Positions 10,658 to 57,620 of a stretch of DNA of 64,000 bases are shown here, in pieces. Position 1 is the stretch's first letter; every line of letters begins with the position of its first letter. Below the pieces are notes generated by a model, which saw only the letters and a program-made list of their open reading frames with translations, had not been told where the DNA came from and ran no database searches. Origin of the DNA: Tubulanus polymorphus (Eukaryota > Animalia > Nemertea); NCBI RefSeq assembly GCF_964204645.1, contig NC_134028.1, forward strand, positions 15,693,653-15,757,652, in the 5' to 3' direction. A program made the position numbers and the translations under genes.

Positions 10658-10810
10658 AGTAATAGGGGTAATAGGCTTTCATACCAAAGGTCGAGAGGTC
10701 GAGAAAGTAAAAAAAATAAAAAATAAATTCTCGCACACTCGAATTTATTTTTTATTTTTACTCACTCGCCCCTTCAACCTTTGATATGAAAGCCCATTAC
10801 CCCTATTACT
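10658..10810. repeat. Terminal hairpin of copy A (153 bp imperfect palindrome)
   Basis: AGTAATAGGGGTAATAGGCTTTCATA ... TATGAAAGCCCATTACCCCTATTACT. Confidence 0.9.
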
Positions 10811-11044
10811 CTTAAAATATTCACATATACATGAATAACATTTAAATTGACAGATTATTCAATATAAAAGTGTCAGCTCTTATAGAATAGATATATAGAT
10901 ATATTTCAAACATTATTTCAATATTCATATTTGTATGAGTTAGATTTTTAAACATTAAAAGTGTTAGTAAAGTGTGATTGAAATAATTCATATATAAATC
11001 ATTGAACTTCTAAAATCAATTTTAATAAAAAATTTGATATTAAA

Positions 11045-14000
11045 ATGGAAGATAATAGGTACTACTGTCCAACATGTAATATCAATATAGATAAATCCCA
11101 AAAAGCAAGACACAATAAAACTAAAACACATTTAGAGAATAAATTGAAACTAGAATATAACGATGATATATTAGAAACTAAATTAGAAGAATTAAAGAAT
11201 GAAAAAGAAACATACAAATGTGATACATGTAATCAATCATTCAGTGATAAAAGATATTATAATGAACATTTAAAATCTAAAAGTCATATTAGAAATAAGA
11301 ATAATGGTATTTTAGGTGAAGATTATTTTGATAAAGATAATGATAAGAAACAGAAGACAATTAAAAGCATAAAAAATAAATTAAACAATAAAAGACCATA
11401 CATGGAAGATGTAAGAAATCATATTAATTCATTAGATAATAAAAAAGATATAGAGATAACCGAAGCATTTAAAAGTGATATTGGCCCAGCAGCTATCGAG
11501 TTTAAATTTCATATAGAAAAAACATTAGAAGAAAATAAAAAACATTTAGAAAATATGAAAGAAATAATAAAAATAATAAATGATGTTGAATACCCTAAAA
11601 TTAGTATATCTTCTAAAGTTAAATTCATAAAATCGGAAGATAAACCAATATATAATATAAATTCTCATTCACAACATATTATTTCAAAACAACATATAGA
11701 TGATAAATTAGATAAATGTTATAATGAAGTAAAAACTAAAATAGAAGAGAAATATTTTGAAGGATCTGGTTTAATATTTGATGAAATAATATTTATGACT
11801 TTACATGTATATAACACAAAATATAATAAGTTAACTAAATCAAAACCAATTGATGAAAATAATGTATCATATTATAAAAAACCAGATATTGAAGCATCGA
11901 GTTATATTAAACTACCATTTAAAACTAATGCTGTTATAAATGTACAAAATGAAGATGATAAATGTTTTCTATGGGCTATAATTAGTTGCTTACATCCAAC
12001 AGAAGATATTACACATAGTTTTAGATTAACCCATTATAAACCATTTGAAAATAATTATAAGATAGATAAGTATCCTGTTATAATTAAAAACATCCCAAAA
12101 ATAGAAAGAGATAATAATAATAAGATAAATGTATTTGATTTAATTAAATTGCCAAATACAGAAGGTAACAATATAAAACATTATACATTAGAATTTTTAT
12201 ATCTAACCTTTGTAATATATGGAGATTTAGAATTATTAAATAAAGAATTAACTGATCAAGATAGAAAAGAAATATATTATAAAAGAAAGAAATTAAATTC
12301 TAATGAAAATTATTTTTCAGATGAACCACCAAACACCAATACTATTAAAAAGATTCATCAATCAGCTGCAGCTTTCGGGTTATATATTAAATCTGATTAT
12401 CCAGAACTAATTGAAAGTGAATATTATCATTATAGAAATGAAAATGTTATCAATCATTTTTGTGACTTATTAATTGAATATGAAATAAAATTTAATGAAA
12501 AGTTAAATAAAAATATAGAAATTATAATGACAGAAGAAGATAAAGAAGCATTTGAGTTTGCAGATAAATGTTATTATTGTGAAAAGATATTTAATTATAA
12601 AGATAAAAAAGTAAGAGACCATTATCATTTGAATGGAAAGTTTAGAGGCGCTGCACATGAGAATTGTAACTTACAAGCTAAGAAAATTAATTTTGTACCA
12701 GTTATATTTCATAATCTATCAGGATATGATGCACATTTATTCATCAAACAGTTATGCCATAAAATAGAAGAAATCAATAATGAAATAGAAATATTAAATT
12801 CAAATAGATCAAAAGATAAAATACCAACTTATAAATTTAGAATGTTAGCTAAAACATCTGAGAATTATATATCATTCCAATTTGGTTGCCTAAGATTTAT
12901 AGATTCATATAGATTTTTAAATAGTTCATTAGATAACTTATCAAAATCATTAGTTGATGATGAATTAAAAATATTAAAGCAACACTACCCAAATAATGAT
13001 GATTTCCAATTAATGAGATATAAAGGAGCAATTCCATATTCATTTTATAAATCACATAATGATTTCAATATAACTGAATTATTGAAAGAACAATTCTATG
13101 ATGAATTAAAAAATGAATATGTTAAAGATGAAGTATATAATAGAACATTGAATATTTGGAATCATTTTAGAATGAAAAATCATGGACAATTAGTAGATTT
13201 ATATCTAAAATCAGATGTATTATTATTAACCGATATATTCGAAAGGTTTAGAGATGTAAACCTAAAATATTTCAATATTGATCCTTGTCATTGTTATTTA
13301 AGTCCAGGATTAACATGGGATTGTGGATTAAAATTTACAGATATAAAAATGGATTTGTTAACAAATATAGATCAATTACTATTATTTGAAAAATCTATAA
13401 GAGGAGGAGTTTCGGGTGTATTAAGGGATAGATATTTCAATGTAAATGATAACCCTGGATATAAGTTATTATATATAGATGCAAATAATTTGTATGGTTG
13501 GGCAATGATGGAACCACAACCTTATGGAGTATTTGAAATAACTGAAGTTTAACAGAATGAAAATAATGACAAATTTGATTGGAAGAAAAGAATCCTAGAT
13601 ATTGCAGATGATTCAGATACTGGTTACTTTTTTGTTGTAGACTTGGAATATCCTAAACATATTAAATTTAAATCTAGAAATCTAGCTTACTGTCCCGAAC
13701 ATAAAACTGTAACTCATGAAGAATTATCAAATTACCAAAAAAGAATTAAACCCGAAAATCATATTCATACATAAAAGTTAATGGTAACTCAAGAAGATAA
13801 ATATAATTATGTAGTACATTATAGAATGTTAAACTTTTATCTAAAACAAGAAATGGTTCTAAAAAAAGTACATAGATATATTTCATTTAGTCAATCTAAG
13901 TGGTTAGAAAAATATATAGATTTTAACACCAAAAAACAGAGAACTACAGCTAAAACTGATTTTGAGAAAGATTTTTTTAAGTTAATGAACAATGCATTCT

Positions 14001-14492
14001 ATGGTAAGACTTGTGAAAATATTAGAAATAGAAATGATATTGAGTTAGTTAGTAATGGTAAAAGGATAAGGCATTTACAAACATATCCTAAGTTCATTGG
14101 TAACAGAATATTTGATGAAAATTTAGCCGCAGTTAAAATGAGAAGAACTTCTATGAAATTTAATAAACCAATCTATGTTGGCGCTTCAGTTTTAGAATTA
14201 TCAAAATTACTAATGTATGAATTCTATTATAATGTATTTCAACCACTTTTTGGAGAAAAACATATAGAAATATTATATTTTGATACAGATTCTTACATAT
14301 TAAAGATAAAAACTAATAACATAACTGATGATTTAAAAACATTAAAACATCATTTTGATTTCAGTAACTATCCTAAAAATCATGAATTGTTTAGCAATGA
14401 TAATAAAAAAGTTCCTGGTAAATTCAAAGATGAATTAGGTGGTGAAGAAATGATTGAATTCATTGGTATTAGATCTAAAATGTATTCATATA
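11045..14492 (+). pseudogene. polB: Protein-primed family B DNA polymerase (copy A)
   Basis: N-terminal C2H2 fingers, NEDDKCFLWAI, VIYGD, FHNLSGYDAH, YIDANNLYG, KLMNNAFYGK, YFDTDS; frameshift and stop present. Confidence 0.92.
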
Positions 14493-14812
14493 AGTAATAG
14501 GGGTTTAGTTGTTCTATACCAAAGGTCGAACGGTCGAGTTCATTAAAAACAAAACATTAAAAGTAATTTAAAACTATAATATATTTTCATATCCGTGTGT
14601 ATTTTATATTATAACTAAATATTTATTCTAAGATATCAATAATTTAAAAAGCATATAATCAAATATATTTTAATAATAATAATTATTCTATTATTCAACT
14701 GAAATACACACGGTTATGAAAATATCTTATAGTTTTAAATTACTTTTAATATTTGTTTTTAATGAACTCGATCATTCAACCTTTAGTATAGAACAACTAA
14801 ACCCCTATTACT
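14493..14812. repeat. Left terminal hairpin of copy B (~112-bp arms, ~95-bp loop)
   Basis: AGTAATAGGGGTTTAGTTGTTCTATA ... TATAGAACAACTAAACCCCTATTACT. Confidence 0.9.
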
Positions 14813-15018
14813 CTTAAAATAATCATATACATAAATAACATTTAAATTGACAGATTATTCAATATAAAAGTATATATTTACAACATTATTTCAATATTCA
14901 TATTTGTATGAGTTAGATTTTTAAACATTAAAAGTGTTAGTAAAGTGTGATTGAAATAATGCATTATATAAATCATTGAACTTCTAAAATCAATTTAGTA
15001 AAAAAATATGTATAATAA

Positions 15019-15693
15019 ATGGAACCAGAACAACCACAAACTATCAATATTACAAATAACACTGGTGTTATAAATATATATTACAAGAAGTGTTCTAAAT
15101 GTGAATTAGATAAATCATTAACATAATTTAGTAAGCGTAAGATTAGCAAAGATGGTTTTCAATATTGCTGTAAAACTTGTTTTAAACTATATACCAAACA
15201 ATACCGAGAAGATAATATAGAACATTATAATTATTATATGGCAGAATATATGAGAGAAAGATATCAAACAGATCTTAATTTTAGATTGAAACAATGCTTA
15301 AGATCTAGATTAACACAATTATTCAACAAAGAAACACATTCAGAAACACTATCTAATTTATTAGGTTGTTCAGATGAATTTTTCATTTCATGGATAATAT
15401 ATCAATTCGATGATAAAATGAATATAGATAATTATGGTGAATACTTTCATATTGATCACGTGTTGCCGATTTCTAAATTTGACATGAATGATGAATACAA
15501 TAAAAAACTTATTTGGAATTGGAAGAATCTAAGACCTTTAGAAAAGAAAGAAAACATAATTAAATCTAATAAACTAGATTTACAGTTATATTTAGAACAG
15601 TTAACAAAGGCAAAGAAATTTATTGATCAATGGAACAATGATCCAAATAATGAACAATACGTTGAGGAATTTGATATCAAGGATCCGAAATGA
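15019..15693 (+). pseudogene. HNH/endonuclease VII-like protein with N-terminal Cys4 finger (one internal stop)
   Basis: CSKC..CKTC; LLGCS..QFDDKMNIDNYGEYFHIDHVLPISKFD..NLRPLEKKENIIKSNK. Confidence 0.75.
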
Positions 15694-16005
15694 CTTATCT
15701 GGACAGTTATAATTACTGCTCCTAATAGATAAACAAAAGTAGTGAGATATCAAATAGAATTCAAATAAAATATATTAAAAAAACAATAACTTCAACTATC
15801 CATTATTTCTATTTTAATTTTTGATATTTTCTTTTACAATTCTTTTCAAAAGAGAATACTTTATATCACAAATAAAAAATACTAAAAAAACAATAACTAA
15901 TACTAAAATTCTTTACCTTTAACTAAGCTAGTATTAACCCAAAGAGATACTAGTATCATTTTATAATACTTATAATATTTTTTTTGCTTTTTTTCTCTAA
16001 TATAA

Positions 16006-16614
16006 ATGTCAAAGAAATCTAATAAGAATAGTATTGATATTGAAAAGACATTAGATGATTTGGGCATTAGTGATAATAAGGATCCAGTTGTTTCTAATTC
16101 TATTCAAGTTAATAACAATATTGATTTTGAATACTATTTATATTGTAAGCATCATCTAGAACTATTGATTGCCGGTGGAAAAACTAAGGAGTTTTTAAAT
16201 AGAATCATTACTTTTCAAGAATTAGATGCTATGAAACCCGATAAAGTAATAAAATATTTTAAGATTTATGAAGAAGCTAGATTAGCTAGAATAAATGATT
16301 GTATTTCAGATGGTATTGTCAAATGTTATTCTAAGTTATGTAACGAGTTAATACCAATTGATGATGAAAATAAATTATATAGTGATTTGAAAAATGACTA
16401 TTTAGTTATGACTGAATTACAAAAATGGGTTGGTTATGCTTCATTTCAATTAGGATCGGTTATGACATTAATTTCTACTGGCGTCATAACATTTTCGAAC
16501 ATCAAACCTATGGAATATAAATCAGGTAAGAACGAAACAGATGACGCTGTACTACAACCAAACGTCGAAACAGAAAATGAATCAGAACAAAAATTAACTA
16601 AAATAAATGAGTGA
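16006..16614 (+). CDS. Conserved Polinton protein of unknown function
   Basis: Intact 202-aa ORF with TAAATG start; homologue at ~54190-54796 (-). Confidence 0.7.
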   Translation: MSKKSNKNSIDIEKTLDDLGISDNKDPVVSNSIQVNNNIDFEYYLYCKHHLELLIAGGKTKEFLNRIITFQELDAMKPDKVIKYFKIYEEARLARINDCISDGIVKCYSKLCNELIPIDDENKLYSDLKNDYLVMTELQKWVGYASFQLGSVMTLISTGVITFSNIKPMEYKSGKNETDDAVLQPNVETENESEQKLTKINE

Positions 16615-16876
16615 TAGCGTTAAGAAAAAGGCTAGATCCGAGAAACAAATTATATGGGCAAGAGAATTAGGTAAAAGATCTGCAGAATTAAAAAAAGCTA
16701 AGAAAAAGAAATTAACTGATATAAATGAATCACAGACTTTATCTGATATTGATTCAAATAATAATCCATCTAATTCTTCTAATGCTGGAAGTAATTATAA
16801 ATTATATATTACAATTGGATTAGTAACAGTTATTATATTATCCGGTGTAATATATAAATCAAAATTCAAATCTGAT
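16607..16876 (+). CDS. Small basic protein with C-terminal TM helix (fused to integrase N-terminus by a deletion in this copy)
   Basis: KKARSEKQIIWARELGK; LYITIGLVTVIILSGVIY; homologue at ~53860-54195 (-). Confidence 0.6.
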
Positions 16877-17965
16877 GAACAATATCTAAGAGATTTATAT
16901 TATAACCCAGAGAGTGAAGTATCATATTCTAACGTTTCAGAATTATGGAATAAAATTAAATCTGATAATGAAAATGGTGCCACCCACATTGTGGCATAAA
17001 ATATAGTGAACTAAGATTATGGTTACAAAATCAACCAACATATCAAATTCACAAGAAAATGGATAAAACTTATTTAACAAGAAAAGTTATGGTTTCATAT
17101 ATCGATCAACAATGGCAAGCAGATTTAATTGACATGAAGAACTTAGAGGAATACAACAAAGGATATTTCTGGATACTGAATGTTATAGACATATTCAGTA
17201 GATACGCATGGTCAATTCCAATCAAAAATAAAACTGGAATAGAAGTTACAAATGCTTTTAAGAATATATTTAAAGAAGCTATTCCAGATAAGATACAATT
17301 TGATGAAGGTAAGGAATTTTATAACAAACATTTTAAAAAAGTATTATCTGATAACGATGTAGATTATTTTTCAACACACTCAGAAAAAAAGCATCTATTA
17401 TAGAAAGATTTAATAAAACATTGAAAACTAGAATGTGGAAATATTTTACTGCTAATGAAACATATAAATATATCGATGTGTTAGATGATTTAGTGAAAGG
17501 TTATAATAATTCTAAACATTCAAGTATTGGTATGAAACCTATACAAGCTAGAAAAGAAGATAATTCAGAAATAGTTTGGAATAATTTATATGGAGCGTTT
17601 GTTACACATGATTTCGGAGAACCTAAATTTAAAATAGGACAACACGTTAGAATATCTAAATATAGAAAAACATTTTATAAAGGTTATACCCCTAATTTTA
17701 CAGAAGAAATATTCAAGATTAAAAAGATGATATTAACTAAACCATTTGTTTATAAATTAGAAGATTTAAAAGATGAAGAAATATTAGGTTATTTCTATGA
17801 ACAAGAATTATCACTTGTACCAAATCCAGATGAAATAGAATACAAAATAGAAAAAGTATTGAAAACAAAAACTCTTTAAAGGAAAAAAGTATTCTTTGGT
17901 GAAATATAAAGGATATGATGATAAATTTAATGAATGGATTTTATCTAGTAAAATTAAAAGAATAA
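16877..17965 (+). pseudogene. int: Retroviral-like (rve, DDE) integrase with C-terminal chromodomain
   Basis: QWQADLIDM, IDIFSRYAW, QFDEGKEF, IERFNKTLK, YNNSKHSSIGMKP, YKIEKVLK..VKYKGY..FNEWI; frameshifts. Confidence 0.92.
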
Positions 17966-18577
17966 ATGAATAAAGATTTATTTATATTCGAACCGCATAA
18001 TATGTTAGTTACTGGAGTAACCAATTGTGGTAAAACACATTTCATATTAGACTTGTTAGAAACTATTTATAAGAATCATTTTGATAATATAATATTATTC
18101 TGTCCTACTTATGAAATGAATAAAACATATAATAGAGATATAGTTAAGATAAAAAAGTTTATTATATTAGATCCTAAAACAGTAAAAGAAAATTTAGATA
18201 ATTGTATAAAAATAGCAATTGATACTTATAAAGGATCAAATACATTATTCATTGTAGATGATTGCGCTAATTTACATGATTCAAAAGTTAGCGAAAGTGA
18301 GTTATGTTATCTAGCTTTCTCTGGAAGACATTTTGGGATAACAACATGGGTTTTAAATCAAAAATATAATTCAATTGTTAAAGACTTTAGGGAGAATATA
18401 AGATTTCTAGTTTTATTTTATAACAAAGATAAAAAATCTATGCAACAATCATTGGAAGGAAATCAAATTATACCTACTGAATTACATGATGAATATATGA
18501 ATAAATTAAAGAATAATAAAGGTTCAAAATTATTACTGAGACTACAATTTCCCTATGAATATAAATTTATAAAATAA
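17966..18577 (+). CDS. A32-like (FtsK/HerA) genome packaging ATPase
   Basis: Walker A GVTNCGKT, Walker B FIVDD, GRHFGI..LNQ. Confidence 0.88.
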   Translation: MNKDLFIFEPHNMLVTGVTNCGKTHFILDLLETIYKNHFDNIILFCPTYEMNKTYNRDIVKIKKFIILDPKTVKENLDNCIKIAIDTYKGSNTLFIVDDCANLHDSKVSESELCYLAFSGRHFGITTWVLNQKYNSIVKDFRENIRFLVLFYNKDKKSMQQSLEGNQIIPTELHDEYMNKLKNNKGSKLLLRLQFPYEYKFIK

Positions 18578-18594
18578 AATTTATAATTTGGAAT

Positions 18595-19220
18595 ATTATA
18601 GAAACTAATTCATATATCTATGTACTAGACGTACGTAAGAATCCAAGATTCTTGCTAAGAAAGTAAGAAAGTAAGAATTCTTACCAAGATTCTTACGTAC
18701 GTCTAGTATATAAATATATAAATTAGTTTTATAATAATTATTCTAAATTTAGATTATAAAAATGAATAAATTATATGTTTTCTCTTAATAAAAATAAAAA
18801 TAGATTATATTATAACTATTTCTATACTTAGATTAATAATTTATGTTTTTAATTTTTATAAAAACTAAATTATATATCTATGTACTAGACGTACGAGTAA
18901 GAAAGTAAGATTCTTACCAAGAAAGTAAGATTCTTAGATTCTTACGTACGTCTAGTATATAGATATATAAATTTTTAAATGAATTGTATAAAAATGAATA
19001 AATTATATGTTTTCTCTTAATAATAATAAAAATAGATTATATTATAACTATTTCTATACTTAGATTAATAATTTTATGTTTTTAATTTTTATGAAAACTA
19101 TTATATATATATATCTATGTACTAGACGTACGAGTAAGAAAGTAAGATTTCTTGGATTCTTGGATTCTTGGATTCTTACTCGTACGTCTAGTATATAGTT
19201 ATATAAATTAGTTTTATAAT
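18595..19220. repeat. Three tandem palindromes between the convergent gene blocks (copy B)
   Basis: TATCTATGTACTAGACGTACG-[variable loop]-CGTACGTCTAGTATATA x3, separated by a duplicated AT-rich spacer. Confidence 0.9.
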
Positions 19221-19222
19221 AA

Positions 19223-20383
19223 TTATTCTAATTTTGTTTCTAATATATTTATAAAATCATATCTGTTTATATCTAATTCACCAAAAGTCTTAGGTAGATT
19301 TATTAATTTTAATTGATTCATCTTAACATAATTATTAGTAGGTAAATTAGCTTTTTCTCTTAATTTTTCTAAGTATTCATCAAAATCATCATAATCAAAA
19401 TCAAAATGATTTCCAAAATTTTGTATTAGATAACTTAAATCTATTTTTCTAAAATATAATAATTTATATATTTGTTTAGGATTATCTTCTGCATAAGCTA
19501 ATAATTTATCAAATAACAACTTATAGAATATATAATATTGGTTAGTTTTAGGATTAAAATATCTGATATATTTATTTGGGTTATTTAACAATGGTATCAT
19601 ACTCACCATTTTATAAACATTAATTAGATGTAACTTTGATTTATAATGAGTATTTTCATCAACAGGTTCAATTTTCTTATTACAATATTGGCACATTTTA
19701 TTTCTTTCTATTTCTTCTAATTTCTTTTCATGTTCTTCTAACTTCCTTTCATTTTCGATATGCACTTGATATTTTTTATGTTTAGAAAAATTACTTTTAG
19801 AAATATCTAAATCACAAATGTTACAATGTTTTTTAGAATCATCAATTGTTTCATTATCATTAGTTTCAATTGTATCAACATTATCTGTTATATTATCTAT
19901 GTTATCATTTGTTTCAATTGTATTTACATTATCTATGATATTATCTATTATATTATTATCAGATATATCATTATCATTATTATTCTTTTCTTTTTCTATA
20001 TGTTTATTTGATTTCTTATGTGATGCCCAATTTTTATATGATATATATTTCTTACATACATCACAATATTTTTCATTTGTCTTTTTGGTTTTGACATCAG
20101 GTTCAATCTTATCATTATTAGATGTAGTAGGTATTACATTATTAGATGTAGAAGGTATTACATTATTAGATGTAGAAGGTATTACATTATTATCAATTAC
20201 ATTACTTAAATTATCAACAACACCACTTTTATTATTATCGATTTCTATTAGTTTAGTTTTATAAATTTTGAAAATAGGATCAAATATCAAAGCTATATTA
20301 CAAGGTATTACATAATATAAACCATCATTATTTTCATGTGTATCGATGTATGGAATATGTTTATATACTCTACCTCCTTCCAT
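19223..20383 (-). CDS. Protein with three C2H2 (matrin-like) zinc fingers and low-complexity repeats
   Basis: CDVC..H..H, CNIC..H..H, CQYC..H..H; NNVIP(S/T)TS x3. Confidence 0.75.
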   Translation of the reverse strand: MEGGRVYKHIPYIDTHENNDGLYYVIPCNIALIFDPIFKIYKTKLIEIDNNKSGVVDNLSNVIDNNVIPSTSNNVIPSTSNNVIPTTSNNDKIEPDVKTKKTNEKYCDVCKKYISYKNWASHKKSNKHIEKEKNNNDNDISDNNIIDNIIDNVNTIETNDNIDNITDNVDTIETNDNETIDDSKKHCNICDLDISKSNFSKHKKYQVHIENERKLEEHEKKLEEIERNKMCQYCNKKIEPVDENTHYKSKLHLINVYKMVSMIPLLNNPNKYIRYFNPKTNQYYIFYKLLFDKLLAYAEDNPKQIYKLLYFRKIDLSYLIQNFGNHFDFDYDDFDEYLEKLREKANLPTNNYVKMNQLKLINLPKTFGELDINRYDFINILETKLE

Positions 20384-20415
20384 TTATTATATGAATTTTT
20401 ATTAAAGTTAAAATT

Positions 20416-21661
20416 CTAATACATAACACTATTTAATTGAGAATTTACAATATTTAATTGCGCGTCAGATATAATATAAATATGCATTTTGAAATTTAGG
20501 CTTCCTTTTTTCTTTGTCATGAATAATTGTATTCCATCTTTAGTGTTTTGTAATTTTTTTCCAGAACCATGTAATGAATTATCCTCTGTTGTTCTAAAAT
20601 CTAACCATAATGCATATTTATTACCGGTATAATAATCAATTTGATTAATGTTATAATTTTCAGATGATTTCACTTTTCCATTCATAAAATGTTTTCTAAT
20701 TTCTGGCCATTGATCAATCATTCTCATTCCTTGACAAAATATTTTATTTGCTATTCCTTCGATAGTTATTTCTACTTTTGTTATTTCAGGATTATAATAA
20801 TTATCAACATTTATTGCACCATTAGTGTATGTTGCAATGGTAAAAAATATTAATATACCTTTAATAGATCTTCTTGGGAAGTTAATATTATCATTAATAA
20901 TTTCATCATTTGCATTAATAGTTACAGTTTTAAATTTATCAATATAATCATATAATAATGAAAATCCTTGATTGTATTTAGTTTGAATTATACTTGAAAT
21001 ATTTTCATCAGTTACTGTATCATATTCTAAACATATATTCGATAATTTATAACTCATATCTTTATTAACGCTAGATATTACAATTTCATTAACAGGAGCA
21101 AATGTTATTTCGAATATAACATCTTCTTGAATTGCGTATTTATATAAAGGCGCATTATTATTTATCAATTCAAAGTCTAATGGAATTTTATATTTGCTTC
21201 CATATATACTTTTTATCAATTTATCTACAGCATATTGCATATTGCATTATGCGCTTCTGATCTTAATTTATTTTGGTTTTCTGATTGGATTCCTTGAAAT
21301 ATCATTTTATTTCTATTTTCTTTAGTTAACCATAAATCTTTGTAATGCATAAACAAATTATAATCATCTAATGAGAAAACTGTTTCTGGACCAATCTTTA
21401 TTGTTAATTTTTAATCAAATATCTTCCAACATTATCAACAACATAATTATTATTATTACCGATTACTTTTATATCGGCTGATAAATAAATACTATTTGGA
21501 ACATAAAAAGTATTTTGTGTTAATCGAGGAATTCTAACATATAAAGTTTCATCAGGATTAATGTTAGAAGGATTATGTGTAATTATATGATGTGATCTTT
21601 CTGCTTTAATAGCATTAGATATTCCATGATTCTTAGAAGGATTGATATAACTCGCACTCAT
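20416..21661 (-). pseudogene. Putative double jelly-roll major capsid protein (frameshifted)
   Basis: ~410 aa in pieces, beta-rich (IITHNPSNINPDETLYVRIPRL; LSNICLEYD; YALWLDFRT); size and position fit Polinton MCP; second copy at 41267-42512. Confidence 0.7.
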
Positions 21662-21681
21662 TTATTTAACAAAAAAATTAA

Positions 21682-24471: not shown

Positions 24472-24487
24472 TTATATAATTAAAAAA

Positions 24488-43432: not shown

Positions 43433-43489
43433 CAAATGACATACACAGTAATCCAACATATACCAGACCGAGTAAATTTCCAAATCGAC

Positions 43490-44261: not shown

Positions 44262-45289
44262 GATGAGGACGCCAGTGGTATGACGACTGAGTTTCAATTC
44301 GTCAAAACGTCACGATGTGTCAACATATTTATGTTGACTTGATGCGATATATCGCGATATATCGACATAAATATGGCGACTTGTCGTGTTTGAACGCGAC
44401 AACTCGAGGCCCTTTATCGCTTCCGTAGATCTTTCATTAAGTAGGATCACTTGAATGATCGCTTTAATACGGAAGCGATAAAGGGCCTCGAGATGTCGCG
44501 TTCAAAATCGGCAAGTCGCCATATTTATGTAGATATATCGCGATATATCGCATCAAGTCGTCATGAATATGTCGACATATCGTGACGTTTTCACGACAAA
44601 TTTCGCTTTTTTGCCCATTTTCCACGAGACAAGCCGTCATGTCGACTTGTCGCGAGGAAAATGGTCGAGAAAACGAAATATGTTGTCAAAACGTCACGAT
44701 ATAGCGACATATTCAAGTCGACTTGACGCGATATATCGCGGTATGTCGACATAAATATGACGACTTGTTGAGTTTGAACGCGACCACTCCAGGCCCCTTA
44801 TCGCTTCCGTACTTTAATATCACTTTTTAAAAAAAGAATCTGCCAAAATGACCTTAATATTCGACACTATATGTATAGAAGCGACAAGGGGCCTCGAGAT
44901 GTCGCGTTCCAACTCGACAAGTCGCCATATTTATGTCGACATACCGCGATATATCGCGTCAAGTCGACATGAATATGTCGATATATCGTGACGTTTTGAC
45001 GACATATTTCGTTTTCTCGACCATTTTCCTCGCGACAAGTCGACATATTCATGACGACTTGAAACTCAGTCGTCATATTACTAGCGTCCTCATCTTACAT
45101 TTAGACATGTCTTCAAATGACGGCTTGTCCCGTGGAAAATGAGCAAAAAAGCGAAATTTGTTGTGAAAACGTCACGATATGTAGACATATTCATGTGGAC
45201 TTGACGCGATATATCGCGATATATCGACATAAATATGGCGACTTGTCGAGTTTGTACCCGACAACTCGAGGCCCTTTATCGCTTCCGTA
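44262..45289. mobile_element. Three adjacent copies of a TA-flanked MITE (partial 44262-44427; 44468-44811; 44874-45289)
   Basis: TA-CGGAAGCGATAAAGGGCCTCGAG ... CTCGAGGCCCTTTATCGCTTCCG-TA long TIRs. Confidence 0.75.
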
Positions 45290-45379
45290 CTATATCAGAT
45301 TAATCGACTTCAAAATAGGCGAAAGCATAAGTCTTTATGACGTTATCAATTGGCCTAATTATTCAAAAGCTAATAAAGT

Positions 45380-48300: not shown

Positions 48301-49231
48301 AAATAACGAATTGTCGCGGGCGATAAAACCAAAATAATAAATTGTCGCGGGCGATAAAACCAAAATAATGAATTGTCGCTGGTGATAAAACCAAAATATT
48401 GAATTGTCGCAGGCGATAAAACCAAAATAATAAATTGTTGCGGGCGATAAAACCAAAATAATGAATTGTCGCGGGCGATAAAACCAAAATAATGAATTGT
48501 CGCGGGCGACAAAACCAAAATATTGTTTTGTCGCGGGTGACAAAACCAAATTAATGAATTGTCGCGGGCGACAAAACCAAAATATTGAATTGTCGCAGGC
48601 GATAAAACCGCGACAAAAAAAAATTGTCGCGGGCGATAAAACCAAAATAATGAATTTTCGCGGGCGACAAAACCAAAATATTGAATTGTCGCAGGCGATA
48701 AAACCGCGACAAAAAAAAATTGTCGCGGGCGATAAAACCAAAATAATGAATTTTCGCGGGCGATAAAACCAGAATAATGAATTGTTGCGGGCGATAAAAC
48801 CAAAATAATGAATTTTCGCTAGTGATAAAACCAAAATATTGAATTGTCGCAGGCGATAAATCCAAAATATTGATGTGTCGGGGGCGATAAAACCAAAATA
48901 TTGAAGTGTCGCAGGCGATAAAACCGCGAAAAAAAAAAAATTGTCGAGGGCGATAAAACCAAAATAATGAATTGTCGCGGGCGATAAAACCAAAATAATG
49001 AATTGTCGCTGGTGATAAAACCAAAATATTGAATGTCGCAGGCGATAAAACCGCGACAAAAAAAAAATTGTCGCAGGCGATAAAACCAAAATAATGAATT
49101 GTCGCGTGCGACAAAACCAAAATAATGAACTGTCGCGGGCGATAAAACCAAAATAATGAATTGTCGCGGACGATAAAACCAAAATTATGAATTGTCGCGG
49201 GCGACAAAACCAAAATTATTGTTTTGTCGCG
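45380..49231. repeat. Satellite/minisatellite, ~31-bp unit, roughly 120 copies, with higher-order blocks
   Basis: Consensus GAATTGTCGCGGGCGATAAAACCAAAATAAT; variant ..AAAACCGCGACAAAAAAAAATT recurs. Confidence 0.95.
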
Positions 49232-49338
49232 TTATTTTATTTTTGTCGTTTTGTCATAATGTCGCCCTCATTTGCATATACGTGTTTTTTTACGCATGGC
49301 CCTTATCAGCCACCACACTAAAGCCTTAAGGTCGCGTA

Positions 49339-49681
49339 AAACTCGATAAACACTTCAAGCGACACAGCGAACGATCTCCTTTCCCCCACAGCCAACGCTT
49401 AACCTAGTAGAGGCTACTAGCCTATGTAGGCCTATGTATATGCGTAGGCCTAACATCCGGACAGATTGGTCGTAGGCCTATTGAATAACAACCCACCTAA
49501 ATATCGTAAATTTTGTTTTGAAGTTCAATCCAATGAGTCCGTTAATAAACGCAACAATTATACTGTGTTTGTTTGTTTGTTTGAGTAAAGCTCAGTACCG
49601 GTAGGCCTAAAGCCTCGTCAAACTCGATAAACACTTCAAGCGACACAGCGAACGATCCCTTTCCCCCACAGCGAACGCTTA
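49339..49681 (+). repeat. ~62-bp direct repeat (49339-49401 and 49620-49681)
   Basis: AAACTCGATAAACACTTCAAGCGACACAGCGAACGATC..TTTCCCCCACAGC.AACGCTTA occurs twice. Confidence 0.75.
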
Positions 49682-51094
49682 CTCCGAATGTCAAGTGTGA
49701 GTCCAGCATACGGAAAGGATTGTGTTATATACTTGTATTTAGTAAATACCTTGTGCATTTGACAATGATCGGTATGTACTGTGTGAAATATAGAGTATTG
49801 ATGGTATTGATATGGAGGTTGAAGCCCGCGGCCGAATAAAGTAATATATTTCTTTATTTTGATACCTCGTCGACATAACAGCTTTTCTCCGCTATATCTC
49901 TTCGGCGTGTTTAGTTTAGGCCTACGACTCCCCGGTACACTTATGATTTATCTTAGTAAATACACGGTTAATTTGGTAAAGAAAAATAGATATTGCTAAA
50001 CTGACTGCTTGAAACCCGCAGCCAAATCACTGGTAGTTATAAATTAATTTGTACTCGATTTGATTCTCATGATGAGGAGAAACTCGCAGCTGATCCCCGG
50101 AACGATGAAATAGTAACACACGTCGATTCGTCGATGTTTACGGCTCGACAGTGCTTTTAAAATCTAAAGAAGTAAATTTCCAGTGTATCGGTAATATGAT
50201 TTGATGAGGAAAATGGGCTATTGTTAAAATCACTGTTTGAAGACCGCGACTGAATGTGAAGTCTGCGGCAATAAATTAGTTCATTTATACTTGAATTGAT
50301 AATCGAAGTGACAGTCGGCCTGCGGGTTGATTTCGGGATGACGACTCGAAAAACATGTCGCCCCATTGAATGGGGCTAAATTTTCGATGTTTACGGCCCG
50401 ACAGCGCTTTTGTAACGATGATTCGTGAAAAAACACGCGGGCTATTTGTAGATCTCAGTGAGCTGAACGATATTATATGGATTGTATATGAAACAGCGGT
50501 AAGGTAACAAAGCCTATGTTCTTTTGGTAAAAATAGTGTGGAAGAAAATAATAATAATAATAATCACGCGGATATCAATAGGGTTTTCTGTGAAATAACA
50601 GAAAACCCTAATAAAACGTGTCAATATTGTAATAAGAAAATTGAACCTGCTGATGAAAATACTCATTATAAATCAAAATTACATCTAATTAATGTTTATA
50701 AAATGGTGAGTATGATACCATTGTTAAATAACCCAAAGAAATATATCAAATATTTTAATCCTAAAAATAAACAATATTACATATTCTATAAGTTGTTATT
50801 TGATAAATTAGTAGCTTATGCAGAAGATAATCCTAAACAAAAATATAAATTATCATATTTTAGAAAAATAGATTTAAGTTATCTGATAAATAATTTTAGA
50901 TATCATTTTGATTTTGATGATGATGATTTTGATGAATACTTTGAAAAATTAAGAAAAGAAGCTAATATACCTACTAATTATCGTTTAAAGATGACTCGAC
51001 GGGAATTAATAAATCTACCTAAGAATTATGGTGAATTAGATATAAACAAAAAATGATTTTATAAATGTATTAGAAACAAAATTAAATAATTATC

Positions 51095-51455
51095 ATAAAA
51101 CTGTTTATATATCTATATATTAGACGTACGTAAGATTCTTGGTAAGAATTCTTACTCTTACGTCTAGTACATAGATATATAAACAGTTTCAGAAAATTAT
51201 TCTAAATATAAATTATATATATATATATTTGTACCACTGTGTAAACATAAATTATAAACATAAATTATAAACATAAATTATAAACATAGTTTTAATATAT
51301 AATTTATTCATTATTATATATTTCATTTAATAATTTATACATCTATGTACTAGATGTACGAGTAAGAATCCAAGAATTCTTACTTTCTTACTTTCTTGGT
51401 AAGAATCTTGGATTCTTACTCGTACGTCTAGTACATAGATGTATAAATAGTTTCT
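51095..51455. repeat. Two internal palindromes of copy C plus (AAACATAAATTAT)n spacer
   Basis: Same ATCTATGTACTAGA(C/T)GTACG..CGTACGTCTAGTACATAGAT stems as 18595-19220. Confidence 0.88.
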
Positions 51456-51470
51456 ATGATATTTCAAATT

Positions 51471-52082
51471 TTATTTTATGAATTTATATTCATAGGGAAA
51501 TTGTAGTCTCAGTAATAATTTTGAACCTTTATTATCCTTTAATTTATTCATATATTCATCATGTAATTCAGTAGGTCTAATTTGATTTTCTTCCAATGAT
51601 TGTTGGATAGATTTTCTATCTTTGTTATAAAATAAAACTAAAAATCTTATATTCTCCGTAAAATCTTTAACAATTGAATTATATTTTTGATTTAAAACCC
51701 ATGTTGTTATCCCAAAATGTCTCCCAGAGAAAGCTAAATAGCATAACTCACTTTCTCTCACTTTTTAATCATGTAAATTTTCACAATCATCTATAATGAA
51801 TAATGTATTTGAACCTTTATAAATATCAATTGCTATTTTAATACAATTATCTAAATTTTCTTTTACTGTTTTAGGATCTAATATGATAAACTTTTTTATC
51901 TTAACTATATCCCTATTATATGTTTTATTCATTTCATAAGTAGGACAGAATAATATTATATTATCAAAATGATTCTTATAAATAGTTTCTAACAAGTCTA
52001 ATATGAAATGTGTTTTACCACAGTTGGTTACCCCAGTAACTAACATATTATGTGGCACAAATATAAATAAATCTTTATTCAT
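51471..52082 (-). pseudogene. Packaging ATPase, copy C (internal stop)
   Basis: GVTNCGKT, FIIDD, GRHFG. Confidence 0.88.
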
Positions 52083-52461
52083 TTATTCTTTTAATTTTAC
52101 TAGATAAAATCCATTCATTAAATTTATCATCATACCATTTATATTTCACCAAAGAATACTAATAAGAGTTTTTGTTTTCAATAATTTTTCTATTTTGTAT
52201 TCTATTTCATCTGGATTTAGTACAAGTGATAATTCTTGTTCATAGAAATAACCTAATATTTCTTCATCTTTTAGATCTTCTAATTTATAAACAAAAGGTT
52301 TAGTTAATATTATCTTTTTAATCTTGAATATTTCTTCTGTAAAATTAGGAGTATAACGAGACGAGAAGATACACAATATCCGTGTAAGAAGATAACAAGA
52401 GAAATCCCACAATAAGTTCAGCCAAAACGAGAAACTTGAATAGAAGAGTTATATATATTTG

Positions 52462-52501
52462 CGCAACGTTTCGGCTAAAGACTATTAGCCATCATCAGGC
52501 G
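52462..52501 (-). ncRNA. Minimal type I hammerhead ribozyme motif (inverted copy)
   Basis: Reverse complement of 52922-52961. Confidence 0.7.
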
Positions 52502-52921
52502 TACTGAGTACAGGAGAATATTACAAGATATTTATACAAGACCAAAACAATAGAAGCAGAGTGAGTGATTAAAATATTGAAAGGGGAATAGATTAAAGTA
52601 ATGACATAACAACTAGAAAACAATGCTAAAGTAAGCAAGGCAAACTAGGGGCAATGTAGATTAAAGTAATTAATAAACAAAGACACAAGCTAAAGTGAAG
52701 CTAAGAGTTGTCCTCCCGTTTTAATCACTTTAGCTTGTGTCTTTGTTTATTAATTACTTTAATCTACATTGCCCCTAGTTTGCCTTGCTTACTTTAGCAT
52801 TGTTTTCTAGTTGTTATGTCATTACTTTAATCTATTCCCCTTTCAATATTTTAATCACTCACTCTGCTTCTATTGTTTTGGTCTTGTATAAATATCTTGT
52901 AATATTCTCCTGTACTCAGTA

Positions 52922-52961
52922 CGCCTGATGATGGCTAATAGTCTTTAGCCGAAACGTTGCG
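52922..52961 (+). ncRNA. Minimal type I hammerhead ribozyme motif
   Basis: CGC-CTGATGA-T-GGCTA(N8)TAGCC-GAAAC-GTT-GCG. Confidence 0.7.
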
Positions 52962-54189
52962 CAAATATATATAACTCTTCTATTCAAGTTTCTCGTTTTG
53001 GCTGAACTTATTGTGGGATTTCTCTTGTTAGGAGTATAACCTTTATAAAATGTTTTTCGATATTTAGATATTCTAACATGTTGTCCAATTTTAAATTTAG
53101 GTTCTCCAAAATCATATGTTACAAAGGCACCATATAAATTATTCCAAACTATTTCTGAATTATCTTCTTTTCTAGCTTGTATAGGTTTCATACCAATACT
53201 TGAATGTTTAGAATTATTATAACCTTTCACTAAATCATCTAACACATCGATATAAATATATGTTTCATTAGCAGTAAAATATTTCCACATTCTAGTTTTC
53301 AATGTTTTATTAAATCTTTCTATGATAGATGCTTTTTTATCTGAGTGTGTTGAAAAATATTCTACATCGTTATCAGATTATAGTTTTTTAAAATGTTTGA
53401 TATAGAATTCCATACCTTCATCAAATTATATCTTACCTGGAATAGCTTCTTGAAATATTGATTTGAAAGCATTTGTAACTTCTATACCAGTTTTATTTTT
53501 AATTGGAATTGACCATGCGTATCTACTGAATATATCTATAACATTTAATATCCATAAATATCCTTTGTTGTATTCTTCTAAGTTCTTCATGTCAATTAAA
53601 TCAGCTTGCCATTGTTGATCAATATATGAAACCATTACTTTTCTTGTTAAATAATTTTTATCCATTTTCTTGTGGATTTGATATGTTGGTTGATTTTGTA
53701 ACCATAATCTTAATTCACTATATTTTATACTTTCTTTATCAGATTTAATTTTATCCCATAATTCTGAAACGCTAGAATATGATACTTCACTTTCTGGGTT
53801 ATAATATAAATCTCTTAAATATTGTTCTTTTTTCATCTTATTTTAATCCATTTATAATAATTTAGATTTAGTTTATATGATTTTATCATTTGACTTATTT
53901 TCTGGTATAATAGGTTTATCATCAGAATCATTATTATTAGATTTGAATTTAGATTTATATATTACACCGGATAATATAATAACTGTGATTAACCCAATTG
54001 TAATATATAAGTAATTATTTCTTCCACTATTAGAAGAATCAGATGGATTGTTATTTGAATTAATATCGGGTGATTCATTTATATCAGTTAATTTCTTTTT
54101 TTTAGCTTTTTTAATTCTGCAGATCTTTTACCTAATTCCCTTGCCCATTTAATTTGTTTTTCAGATCTAGGCTTCTTCTTAATATCATC

Positions 54190-54796
54190 ACTCATATATT
54201 TTAGTTAATTTTTGTCCGGATTCATTTTCTGTTTCACCGTGCGGGTGTCGTGCGGCACCATCTGTTTCGTTCTTACCTGATTTATATTCTATATGCTTGA
54301 TATTCGAAAATGTTATGACACCAGTAGAAATTAATGTCATTATTCCACCTAATTAAAATGAAGCGTATCCAACCCATTTTTGAAATTCAGTCATAACTGA
54401 GTAGTCATTTTTTAAATCACTATATAATTTATTTTCATCATCAATTGGTATTATCCGTTTACATAATTTTGAATAACATTTGACAATACCATCACTTAAA
54501 GAGTCATTTATTCTAGCTAATCTTGACTCTTCATAAATTTTGAAATATTTTATTACTTTATCTGGTTTCATAGAGTCTAATTCTTTAAAAGTTAAAATTT
54601 TCCCCAAGAAATCCTTAGATTTCCCTCCGGCAATTAGTAATTCAAGATGGTGCTTACAATATAAGTAGTATTCATAATCAATATTACAATCAATATTATT
54701 TTCCATTTTGTTTGGAATATCCTTATTATCACTAATGCCCAAATCATCTAATGTTTTTTCAATATCGGTATCATTCTTATTAGATTTCTTTGACAT
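54190..54796 (-). pseudogene. Homologue of 16006-16614
   Basis: MSKKSNKN..YLYCKHHLELLIAGGK. Confidence 0.7.
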
Positions 54797-55039
54797 CTAT
54801 ATTAGAGAAAAATCGAAAAAAAATATTATAAGTATTATAAAATGATACTAGTTAGTTAAGTTATTGATACTAAATTGACTAGGTTAGTTAAAATAAAGAA
54901 TTTCTATTCGAATCTTATCAAAATATAAAGTATTCTCTTTTTGAAAAGAAATAATAGATTTTTGAAAAAAAAATAAAATAGAAATAATGGCTAGCTGAAG
55001 GTATATAATTTTTAATGTATTTTATTTGAGATATATTAA

Positions 55040-55718
55040 TCTTTAACCACTTATTAAAGACTCAACGTATTGTTCATTATTTGGATCATTGTTCCAAAAT
55101 TCAATAAATTTCTTTGCTTTATCCAGTTGATCCAAATATAACTGTATATCTAGTTAATTAGATTTAATTATATTTTCTTTCTTTTCGAGGGGCCTTAGAT
55201 TCTTCCAATTCAAAACTAGTTTCTGATTGTGTTCATCATTCATGTTGAATTTAGATATTGGTAACACGTGATCAATATGAAAATAATCTATCTTTACTGA
55301 ATAATTGTGTTAATCTTGAACTTAAACATTTTCTCATTTTGTAATTAAAATCTGTTTTGTACCTTTCATTTTGATAATTATTACGGTAATCATTATAATG
55401 TTCACGATTATCTTTTTTCCAATCTCTAATATATTCTGGATTATTTTCTCTCCATTGTTGTTTCGTTTCTTTACATTTTTCTAGATTATTTAGATAATAT
55501 TGTTTACTTTTTTCTTTACATTTTTCTGGATTATTTTTATAATATTGTTTATTATAAAGTTTATTACAAGTTTTGCAATAACATTGCCTACCATCTTTAG
55601 ATTTTTTATGTTCATTAAATTCTGTAAATGACTTATTCAATTCACACTTATAACATTTCTTATTGTGAATATTTATAACACTATTTGTAATATTTATAGT
55701 TTGTGATTGTTCCTCCAT
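55040..55718 (-). pseudogene. HNH-like endonuclease paralogue 1, copy C
   Basis: CYKC..CKTC, YFHIDHVLP, NLRPLEKKEN; internal deletion. Confidence 0.7.
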
Positions 55719-55805
55719 TTATAATACATATTTTTATTAAAATTGATTAACATGTTAGAATCCTATTCATAATCTCATTTTCTTTTGACTCTTCTCTTTT
55801 AAATT

Positions 55806-56487
55806 TTAAGTACCAGCTATATAGGTGAGTATTATCGGGCGTTTATAAAGATTCAACGTATTTTTTTTCTGTGGAAGACTATTCCATAATTCAACAAATG
55901 TCTTTGCTTTAACCAGTTGATCTAAATATAACTGTAAATCTAGATTATTAGATTTAATTATATTTTCCTTCTTTTCTAAAGGTCTTAAATTTCTCCAATT
56001 CCAAATTAGCTTCTTATTATAATCATCACTCAAGCCAAATTTAGATTACAATGTGGAAGTATTCACCATAGTTTTTTTCATTTATTTCATCATTAAACTG
56101 ATATATTATCCATGATTTTAAGAATTCATCTGTACAACCCAACAAATTAGATAGTGTTTCTGAATGCGTTTCTTTGTTGAATAATTGTGTTAATCTAGAC
56201 CCTTAACATTGTTTCATTTTAAAATTAAGATCTGTTTTATATCAACCTCACATATATTCTGTCATATAATCATTATAATGTTCTCTATCATCTGCTCGAT
56301 ATTGCTTAGTACATAGTTTAATACAAGTTTTGCAGCAATATTGAAAACCATCTTTGCTAATCTTACGCTTACTAAATTCTGCTATAGCTAATTTATCTAA
56401 TTCACATTTAGAACATTTCATGTAGTATATGTTTATAACACCAGTTTTATTTGTAATATTGAGAGTTTGTGATTGTTCTGGTTCAAT
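55806..56487 (-). pseudogene. HNH-like endonuclease paralogue 2, copy C
   Basis: CSKC..CKTC, LLGCTDEF, WNWRNLRPLEKKENIIKSN; start mutated to ATT. Confidence 0.7.
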
Positions 56488-56566
56488 TTTAATATCAAAT
56501 TTTTTTACTAAATTGATTTTAGAAGTAATTCATTTATATGTTATTCATATATATGAATATTTTAAG

Positions 56567-56650
56567 AGTAATAGGGAATATGGGGTATCATATCAAAGGT
56601 TGAAGGGGCGAGTGAGTAAAAATGAAAAAATAAATTCGAGCGTGCGAGAA
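56567..56650. repeat. Inner arm and loop of copy C terminal hairpin (outer arm missing)
   Basis: AGTAATAGGGAATATGGGGTATCATATCAAAGGTTGAAGGGGCGAG..AAATTCGAGCGTGCGAGAA. Confidence 0.85.
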
Positions 56651-57471
56651 ACATCTGAGAATAATATATCATTCCAATTTGGGTGTCTAATATTTTTAGA
56701 TTCATTTAGATTTTTAAGCAGTTCATTAGATAATTTAAAAAAATCATTCGTTGATGATGAATTAAAGATATCAAAACAACACTACCCAAATAATGATGAT
56801 TTTCAATTAATGAGATATAAAGGCGCAATACCATATTCATTTTATAAATCGCATAATGATTTCAATATAACTGAATTATTAAAAGAACAATTCTATGATG
56901 AATTAAAAAATGAATATGTTAAAGATGAAGTATATAATAGAACATTGAATATTTGGAATCATTTTAAAATAACAAATCATGGACAATTAGTAGATTTATA
57001 TTTAAAATCAGATGTATTATTATTAACTGATATATTCGAAAGGTTTAGAGATGTAAACCTAAAATATTTTAATATTGATCCTTGCCATTGTTATTCATCA
57101 CCAGGATTAACTTGGGATTGTGGTTTAAAATTTACAGATATAAAAATGGATTTGTTAACAAATATAGATCAATTATTATTATTTGAAAAATCTATAAGAG
57201 GAGGAGTTTCAGGTGTATTAGGTGATGAAGATAAAAAATTTAAATCTAGAAATCTAGCATACTGTCCAGAACATAAAACTGTAACGCATGAAGAATTATC
57301 AAATTATCAAAAAAGAATTAAACCCGAAAATCATATTCATGCAGAAAAGTTAATGGTAACTCAGGAAGATAAATATAATTATGTAGTGCATTTTTGAATG
57401 TTGAAGTTTTATTTGAATCAAGGAATGATTCTAAAAAAAAGTACATAGATATATTTCATTGAGTCAATCTA
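56651..57471 (+). pseudogene. Internal pPolB fragment closely matching copy D, with motif A region deleted
   Basis: Shares SENNISFQFGCLIFLDSFRFLSSSLDNLKKSF with 59795 onward; GVLGD|EDKK junction at ~57226. Confidence 0.85.
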
Positions 57472-57620
57472 AGTAAAAGGGATAATAGGGGTTCATAACA
57501 AAGGTCGAGAGTCGAGCTCATAAAAAAATGAAAAAACAAATTCTCGCACGCTCGAATTTATTTTTTCATTTTTATGAGCCCTTTCAACCTTTGATATGAA
57601 CCCCTATTATCCCTATTACT
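57472..57620. repeat. Terminal hairpin of copy D (149 bp)
   Basis: AGTAAAAGGGATAATAGGGGTTCATA ... TATGAACCCCTATTATCCCTATTACT. Confidence 0.9.

Follow-up and report, generated by a model that had tools for sequence, protein, structure and literature searches.

Hairpin termini of pPolB Polintons in Tubulanus polymorphus and in related elements

Results

Hairpin ends of four Polinton copies

The stretch of DNA analysed here (the window) comprises 64,000 nucleotides of Tubulanus polymorphus contig NC_134028.1 and contains four degraded copies of a Polinton/Maverick, designated A to D, which were defined together with their borders by comparing the window with itself. Copy A consists of the polymerase end only, copy B (16.4 kb) has both ends, copy C has lost its left end and carries two insertions, and copy D runs off the window. 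All five Polinton ends present are hairpins, four of them whole (H1, H2, H3 and H5) and one represented by its inner half (H4; Table 1). Judged from its sequence, the element is a Polinton/Maverick with a protein-primed polymerase (pPolB), as the initial annotation had held. Among the 33 window open reading frames (ORFs) of at least 120 aa that were scanned against Pfam, two matched DNA_pol_B_2 above its cut-off and Endonuclease_7 was also matched; an ORF of copy C (53426-53836) matched the retroviral-type integrase family rve with E 1.4e-4, under the curated cut-off. The terminal inverted repeat (TIR) tips are of the AG..CT or AC..GT type known from Polintons/Mavericks. No target-site duplication was found at any window copy, all of which are rearranged or cut.

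From the outside inwards, a whole end starts with a tip motif of 10 bases, which is followed by a variable arm (16 bases), a longer stem with imperfect pairing and a loop; the complements of these segments and then the TIR core come next. The coordinates, arm sequences and lengths (86-320 bp) originally given for the five ends proved correct. Folding z-scores, obtained with 40 dinucleotide shuffles per end, ranged from -9.5 to -21. The five ends account for all eight exact window matches to the 10-mer tip motif and for 9 of the 11 matches with at most one mismatch; 100 shuffles gave 3.1 +/- 1.6 matches, and 11 was reached in none of them (0/100). The window contains no solo copy of the hairpin, and an Rfam scan of it returned no match.

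Table 1. Positions of hairpin ends, Polinton copies and genes in the window, and of two complete relatives
Feature	Position	Strand	Basis or remark
H1, terminal hairpin, 153 bp; polymerase-side end of copy A, host flank outside	10658..10810	+	Folding, pairing, read break-off at 10658
TIR core of copy A	10811..11050	+	201/209 identical to core beside H2
pPolB of copy A, broken, cut off at H2	11045..14497	+	N-terminal C2H2 fingers, OTU-type Cys motif, Endonuclease VII-type insert
H2, terminal hairpin, 320 bp, branched loop; integrase-side end of copy B, adjoins copy A polymerase	14493..14812	+	Folding, pairing
Copy B, 16.4 kb, both ends, genes degraded	14493..30875		No target-site duplication
TIR core, left end of copy B	14813..15024	+	199/212 identical to core beside H3
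Retroviral-type (rve) integrase region of copy B, in pieces	16607..17879	+	Matches copy C 53028-53836
Packaging ATPase	17966..18577	+	Pfam Pox_A32 E 2.7e-11
Major-capsid-like ORF (part)	20416..21240	-	ESM Atlas look-alikes 0.96-0.98; 35% to counterpart ORF of complete relative
pPolB of copy B, broken, limits approximate	26930..30554	-	
TIR core, right end of copy B	30547..30789	-	
H3, terminal hairpin, 86 bp, host flank outside; short tandem repeat replaces most of outer arm and loop	30790..30875	-	Pairing
Copy C, left end missing	33369..56650		Interrupted by host repeats (~43096-50609) and a foldback insertion (52358-53029)
H4, half hairpin (inner arm and loop); integrase-side end of copy C	56567..56650	-	Cut at loop, joined to polymerase fragment
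Polymerase fragment with internal deletion, between H4 and H5	56649..57474	+	
H5, terminal hairpin, 149 bp; polymerase-side end of copy D	57472..57620	+	One mismatch in outer tip
pPolB of copy D, broken	57700..61752	+	
Complete relative, hairpin starts both TIRs	G001:C67:3805-23212		(AC)3A tips; TIR 226 bp at 99%; 5-bp target-site duplication inside microsatellite
Complete relative, different polymerase type, hairpin starts both TIRs	G001:C9:291-15427		(AGT)2 tips; TIR length 221 bp, identity 96%; target-site duplication of 6 bp, perfect

Paired drift of the hairpin arms

Each arm had been reported to pair with its own partner while arms differ between ends, and this was borne out quantitatively: over the first 26 positions of the four whole hairpins, 101 of 104 cells are paired although the arms differ, and the real partners were the best of the 24 possible permutations, derangements averaging 76 paired cells. 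At least two Watson-Crick pair types occur in 12 of the arm columns, and the variable columns are paired in 53/56 cells. Beyond position 26 the hairpins are imperfect, with mismatches at fixed places.

Arm positions 11-26 differ between ends at 4-12 of 16 positions, and the TIR cores differ by 4-15%. Since the arms of the three polymerase-side ends have drifted at about the neutral rate (4/16 positions, compared with 56/298 four-fold sites of pPolB) yet have kept their pairing, the arms appear to be kept alike by copying within the hairpin. This combination points to arm-to-arm copying and not to slow compensatory selection.

The two ends of copy B differ, as had been noted: their TIR cores are identical at 199/212 positions, yet the arms differ at 12/16. 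H2 and H5 join polymerase fragments of other copies, with microhomology of 1 and 3 nt at the respective junctions; copy B may therefore not be a single intact insertion, and its unequal hairpins over matching cores may be real or may be a product of rearrangement. A single copy-back genome made up of A and B was considered and rejected: at four-fold sites the two differ as much as other pairs do (13/72), and they are not enclosed by a common target-site duplication. At junctions 14492/14493, 57471/57472 and 56650/56651 ends often adjoin other Polinton copies, one end being cut at its loop, and in a relative (G001:C9:282-291) two different ends lie 8 bp apart; such junctions suggest nesting or breakage at hairpins.

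Hairpin ends in relatives

Relatives were collected as polymerase loci, of which 76 were fetched and 51 screened for hairpins; the other 25 were short or lacked the N-terminal side. A strong hairpin lies at most 1.3 kb upstream of the polymerase in 6/51 loci, compared with 21 hairpins in the other 91% of bases (binomial p 0.03). The end motif occurs on both sides in 5/6 of these upstream hairpins, one of the five being scored by the window's own motif, vs 0/21 of the others; the upstream hairpin without it (L013) is uncertain. A follow-up added L102 and L103 as well as loci missed by the screen: L077, and L002, L035 and L047, each of which begins with a cut hairpin. In most other screened loci the polymerase looked internal and no end was located (28 loci inspected), so that absence cannot be scored there. 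Every located end carried a hairpin; as ends were found partly via hairpins, this is not an estimate of prevalence.

The design thus extends beyond the one family to which the initial annotation had assigned it: it recurs at 24-80% polymerase identity, in four unrelated end families and with both polymerase types. Arms covary in two larger sets as well, with 142/150 and 104/108 cells paired, each the best of 720 permutations. In all, an imperfect palindrome beginning at base 1 takes up the first 100-320 bases of each Polinton TIR, and the outer tips carry the end motifs (AGT)2 and (AC)3A, which together with (AG)3 are given for Polintons/Mavericks (adintoviruses) in the available part of PMC8097293.

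Two relatives are complete (Table 1). Their integrases match rve with E 3e-7 and 4.5e-7, under the curated cut-off. The left-end and right-end hairpins match in both elements. Homogenisation had been placed within the hairpin rather than between ends. The first half of that statement stands, given neutral drift with pairing kept, whereas the second holds only for the broken copy B, the TIRs of the complete relatives matching at 96% and 99%. Local folding therefore adds to end-to-end matching and does not replace it.

In the same two elements, G001:C9 and G001:C67, the capsids are 92%, the integrases 89% and the ATPases 86% alike, with 90-95% nucleotide identity across the three genes; the polymerases and TIRs of the two are unrelated, and both elements are hairpin-ended. 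One polymerase has an Endonuclease VII-type insert and the other an insert that, from its motif, we take to be VSR-like. In this pair the hairpin changed with the polymerase and not with the integrase, which makes the polymerase the likely partner protein.

Some further features of relatives were recorded. G001:C67 contains a 4.76-kb internal tandem duplication, and an element at G001:C50 (~33300-43870) lacks most of the polymerase and keeps an AC-tip hairpin. Immediately upstream of the polymerase start in L005 (L005:955-972) is a second copy of the terminus's outer 17 bases. L002 and L005 have a small ORF upstream of the polymerase; in the window this ORF is downstream. The loop apices of H1, H5 and the AC-tip loci L060, L068, L069, L102 and L103 have the word pair CTCG..CTCG in common, which may be a protein-binding or cut site. 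Several prokaryotic species representatives (G001, G002, G005, G006 and others) hold many Polinton contigs, with 132 polymerase matches in G002; most likely these are eukaryotic contamination. In the polymerase-rich contigs of G002 and G005, the 22 longest listed repeats of each contig included no TIR pair, and so these contigs supply no denominator. In viral contigs, an exact 17-mer scan gave one match, a phage terminator-like stem, and single-protein searches with P0001, the G001:C9 polymerase and the capsid-like ORF of that element found no relatives. An inner-arm pattern scan gave 35 matches, four with the partner 8-mer upstream, and a two-tip pattern scan gave a single match, which had neither hairpin nor Polinton gene and was set aside.

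Strand bias and orientation

Mismatches were typed in 12 hairpins over their first 35-50 bases, with H3, H5 and one G001:C9 end omitted as near-duplicates. Mismatches that read C.A on the 5' strand, and hence G.T on its 3' counterpart, numbered 22, those of the reverse kind 3 and all other types 33. In 11/12 hairpins folding is better for the 3' strand. Orientation was scored at 19 ends in four groups (7 window-type, 6 AC-tip, 3 C9-type and 3 L037-type), and no flipped end was found among them.

Ends in raw reads

Raw Illumina reads came from another study (run X6, of which ~12% was read). Depth was 2-7 in the flank, ~2100 in the outer arm, 2600-3100 in the inner arm, ~1900-2000 in the TIR core and ~1100 in the polymerase, which amounts to several hundred ends per genome, about two per polymerase. 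Depth, taken with the genes of the flank, suggests a eukaryotic host whose genome measures some hundreds of megabases. Exactly before base 10658, 1236 reads (907 in a second pass) break off into unrelated flanks (flank agreement 0.34-0.35). The hairpin is the true tip of the element. Because hundreds of ends with varied flanks are present in raw reads, an assembly artefact, raised as a concern in the initial annotation, can be dismissed, and little room is left for a solo miniature inverted-repeat transposable element (MITE). On the related concern that the hairpins are independent MITEs, no excess of stand-alone copies over the parent element was seen: outer-arm depth is close to TIR-core depth and solo copies are absent from the window, with up to a quarter of the flank reads unassigned. 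Among contigs of runs X1, X2 and X3, none spans the stretch, of which X1 contains a small share.

Polymerase domains and nuclease insert

Asp, Cys and His residues in the polymerase N-terminus are invariant in 17/17 sequences, and the copy B polymerase has the Cys motif and the His region. A structure model of a close relative (L005) matched a Y-family little finger (Z 8.5, root-mean-square deviation 2.8, 104 aligned) and a viral OTU domain (Z 7.6, root-mean-square deviation 3.3, 104 aligned); Foldseek alone gave no match with E under 0.001 for the N-terminus model. As modelled, the polymerase keeps terminal-protein and OTU domains, a TP-vOTU-pPolB layout that is linked to protein priming in the part of PMC11161782 available.

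The Endonuclease VII-type motif is kept in 14/15 aligned polymerases and was the most conserved alignment word. The G001:C9 polymerase is without it, and its hairpin is still present. Nucleases of this class cut branched or mismatched DNA. Such an activity is predicted for the insert from Pfam and motif conservation; a sequence search of solved structures with the insert returned no relevant match. HNH and VSR inserts are described in the portion consulted of 10.1101/2023.08.22.554363, and PMC11161782, likewise in part, interprets inserts of this kind as invasions by homing endonucleases. Among the 33 window ORFs, neither a resolvase nor a telomerase-resolvase gene was found, and an HUH Rep nickase had no Pfam match among these ORFs or among 10 proteins of relatives.

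Other features of the window

The capsid-like ORF of Table 1 is a capsid candidate and should be taken as a lead. Neither it nor its counterparts in relatives match Pfam; the ESM Atlas look-alikes are viral, and some of their clusters contain Capsid_NCLDV at 10-18% of members, a criterion of low recognition value. An adenovirus-like maturation protease had no Pfam match among the 33 window ORFs, whose genes are degraded, and no search was aimed at it.

At 52347-53040, a 672-bp insertion made of a perfect 306-bp inverted repeat interrupts the integrase region of copy C; an 11-bp direct repeat borders it on both sides and is present once in copy B. The insertion has a CTGATGA..GAAAC pair that resembles a hammerhead core, and it may be of the Penelope type; an Rfam hammerhead match was not found. 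Copy C is also interrupted by a 31-bp satellite (122 copies, 45397-49231) beside a GC-richer nest of inverted repeats (44299-45294). In copies B and C a palindrome-rich spacer separates the convergent ATPase and the next gene (18560-19253 and 51085-51448). Beside copy C, 32567-33169 is a reversed fragment, 68-70% identical, of a more distant polymerase N-terminus. The host flank (1403-9547) contains long-terminal-repeat-retrotransposon-like ORFs (chromodomain, aspartic protease, DUF1759), all under Pfam cut-offs.

Discussion

A proposed fold-back model for the Polinton tip

The hairpin is a real and conserved end structure of pPolB Polintons. What it does must be judged from a palindrome that begins at the exact tip, arms that change in pairs, a single orientation, mismatches that favour the 3' strand, and a polymerase with terminal-protein and OTU domains. 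Our preferred explanation, to which we give an even chance, is that the 3'-ending strand folds back on itself, which gives protein-primed replication a paired tip again and the tip a back-up template. After strand displacement, the 3' end of the freed single strand would fold back to pair with the tip motif's inner copy; at this folded 3' end the terminal protein would prime, and the polymerase would copy round the loop and on through the genome. Copying round the loop would also keep one orientation. A frayed or mismatched 3' end could be trimmed and refilled from the inner arm, and refill over the outer ~26 bases would copy changes from arm to arm. More weakly, the fold would mark the border between host and element, where a structure-specific cut by the Endonuclease VII- or VSR-type insert, or by the integrase, could free an integrated copy. 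Folding, priming and repair in vivo are what we infer from the patterns above.

Several points count against this explanation. The sequences are integrated and assembled, and no free molecule or replication intermediate is among them. A fully paired 3' end would also be an ideal self-primer, and refill would have to halt or be cut at the hairpin base. The strand bias could stem from deamination of one strand instead of selection, and the hairpins scored for it, 12 in all, are not independent of one another. Only one pair shows the polymerase swap; because the gene lies beside one TIR, the end may have hitch-hiked. The matching ends of intact relatives allow a panhandle, which could make local fold-back unnecessary, and hairpin length and loop vary widely (86-320 bp). 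In the reads, 399/1635 and 308/1215 flank-joined reads were placed on the inner arm, which may reflect misplacement, solo hairpins or isomers, and an outer-type letter stood at inner position 35 in 561/1947 reads (29%). Mock reads cut from the five window ends contained none of these letters (0), so that solo hairpins, perfected arms or isomers of another kind may be present. Letters of a full flip (outer-type at inner position 27, inner-type at outer position 35) were absent from the best 40 of 61 rows, whose lowest share was ~12%. The read letters appear to fit partly perfected inner arms better than 1:1 isomers, a minority of isomers being possible.

Alternative explanations

The same 3' end could instead prime itself, as in a rolling hairpin, with a nick by the nuclease insert of the polymerase or by the integrase restoring the end and asymmetric resolution keeping the orientation, as it does at the left end of minute virus of mice. 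We think this possible but improbable, at clearly lower odds than fold-back for protein priming. Pairing from base 1 in a long terminal hairpin makes a perfect primer-template junction, arm-to-arm copying would follow directly, the Endonuclease VII-type motif is kept in 14/15 polymerases, and the outer-type letters at inner position 35 would be accommodated. It is also the model proposed for the elements of Halocafeteria seosinensis by a July 2026 preprint (bioRxiv 10.64898/2026.07.28.741278). However, 0/19 ends are flipped and the read rows examined lack full-flip letters, a terminal protein with an intact OTU site would be needless, and the hairpin also accompanies the G001:C9 polymerase, which has no such motif. 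Covalently closed, poxvirus-like virion telomeres, one strand of which was opened at integration to give the host palindrome, would make the arms complementary strands that necessarily change together, and fixed mismatches and bulges are known from vaccinia telomeres (PMC8956199, in part). Against them stand the lack of flip/flop, the lack of a resolvase or telomerase-resolvase among the 33 ORFs, the retained terminal protein and outer-tip repeat motifs that fit protein priming; we hold this reading to be very unlikely. The parvovirus- or poxvirus-type telomeres first suggested for these ends accordingly find little favour, with no flip/flop end seen, read tables that misfit a 1:1 mixture, and protein-priming domains intact.

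Two further accounts give the hairpin no part in replication. It could serve only release or integration, a cruciform or single-strand stem being cut at the host border while replication proceeds through an ordinary end-to-end panhandle. The stem base does coincide with the host border, both polymerase types carry an insert of a nuclease class that cuts structures or mismatches, and intact ends still match each other; but near-identical integrases (89%) serve two unrelated hairpin ends, a cut alone leaves the paired neutral drift of the arms unexplained, and the homing-endonuclease view of such inserts offers another origin for them (PMC11161782, in part). We consider this account unlikely, more so than self-priming. 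Finally, the hairpin could have no viral function, having arisen by accidental duplication of an end that palindrome correction by the host keeps symmetrical once it is inserted, or being a MITE that is independent of the element and lodged at its ends. At position 35 part of the inner arms do appear perfected, about a quarter of the flank-joined reads fall on the inner arm, and an accident is also raised in the section compared of the Halocafeteria preprint. This is the least probable of the accounts considered: the same design occurs in four unrelated end families with both polymerase types, the end motif flanks 5/6 polymerase-upstream hairpins vs 0/21 others, mismatches persist at fixed sites on one side, and outer-arm depth (~2100) matches the TIR core (~1900-2000) at about twice that of the polymerase (~1100), with no solo copy in the window.

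A broader version deserves mention, although we doubt it: long fold-back termini would be general, though overlooked, in pPolB Polintons, forming a self-repairing telomere that travels with the polymerase, and at the host border the folded 3' strand would be cut by the polymerase's own domain of Endonuclease VII or VSR type. A self-releasing telomere of this kind would account for the way in which an integrated Polinton gets free and begins to replicate. For both release and the start of protein-primed replication, the conserved tip fold is a concrete substrate for biochemistry, and it offers a quick screen for the hundreds of catalogued intact Mavericks. The fold also accounts for the breaking of short-read contigs at element ends, as in L002, L035 and L047, which start inside the hairpin. 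Hairpin ends also link Polinton termini to the end biology of Streptomyces, parvoviruses and poxviruses.

Comparison with known systems

The elements resemble Polintons/Mavericks in their pPolB, rve integrase, ATPase and candidate capsid genes, length (~15-19 kb), TIRs of 220-400 bp, AG..CT or AC..GT tips, TP-vOTU-pPolB layout and, in the relatives, target-site duplications of 5-6 bp. They differ from described Polintons in that the outer third to three quarters of the TIR is a 100-320 bp fold-back. In the texts available in part, 'palindrom' occurs 0 times in PMC8097293, and 'hairpin' and 'palindrom' 0 times in its supplement, in 10.1101/2023.08.22.554363 and in PMC8502044; the parts covered of PMC11161782, PMC6431247, PMC12747079, PMC4779613 and 10.1101/2023.10.16.562556 make no mention of a terminal hairpin of pPolB Polintons. 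Hairpin ends of pPolB Polintons are thus apparently unreported, the 2006-2007 founding papers, Repbase Reports and bioRxiv supplements lying outside the literature covered. The novelty originally supposed holds to this extent; terminal palindromes and hairpin priming as such are already in the 2026 preprint for virophages as well as PLVs (Polinton-like viruses).

That preprint describes, in the sections consulted, palindromes at the TIR tips of endogenous virophages (subtypes 1, 2, 5 and 6) and of PLV subtype 4 in H. seosinensis, finds them preferentially with non-pPolB replication genes, proposes hairpin priming and calls for a global survey; it summarises the standing model of Polinton replication as an end-to-end 'racket' (bioRxiv 10.64898/2026.07.28.741278). 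The Halocafeteria elements are like ours in having palindromes inside TIRs beside target-site duplications, for which a fold-back model is proposed. They come from a protist and have 52-nt palindromes in the figured subtype, whereas two pPolB types with terminal protein are involved here, and covariation, strand bias and orientation are untreated in the preprint section compared. The inverted terminal repeats (ITRs) of bidnaviruses form no hairpins, according to the part of PMC4061559 available.

Among cellular replicons, linear Streptomyces DNA (Tpg/Tap) is a close counterpart: its palindromic 3' single strand supports protein priming, and a tip that has been shortened is repaired on the fold-back (PMC5449611, in part). 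Streptomyces telomeres differ in being bacterial, with several short palindromes, an internal origin and separate Tpg and Tap proteins, and the likeness implies no homology. Parvovirus, adeno-associated virus and poxvirus ends are likewise imperfect hairpins of 100-300 nt, some with branched loops and fixed mismatches, and those terminal hairpins self-correct. They act as primers or closed ends, are in most cases found in flip and flop forms, and depend on an HUH Rep or on a resolvase; no flipped end was seen among those scored here, no Rep was found among the ORFs scanned, and the terminal protein is kept. In adenovirus, the displaced single strand forms a panhandle through its ITRs; this again provides terminal-protein priming with a duplex origin, and copying corrects the ends. 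The partners in that panhandle are the two ends of the genome, whereas each Polinton end can also pair with itself.

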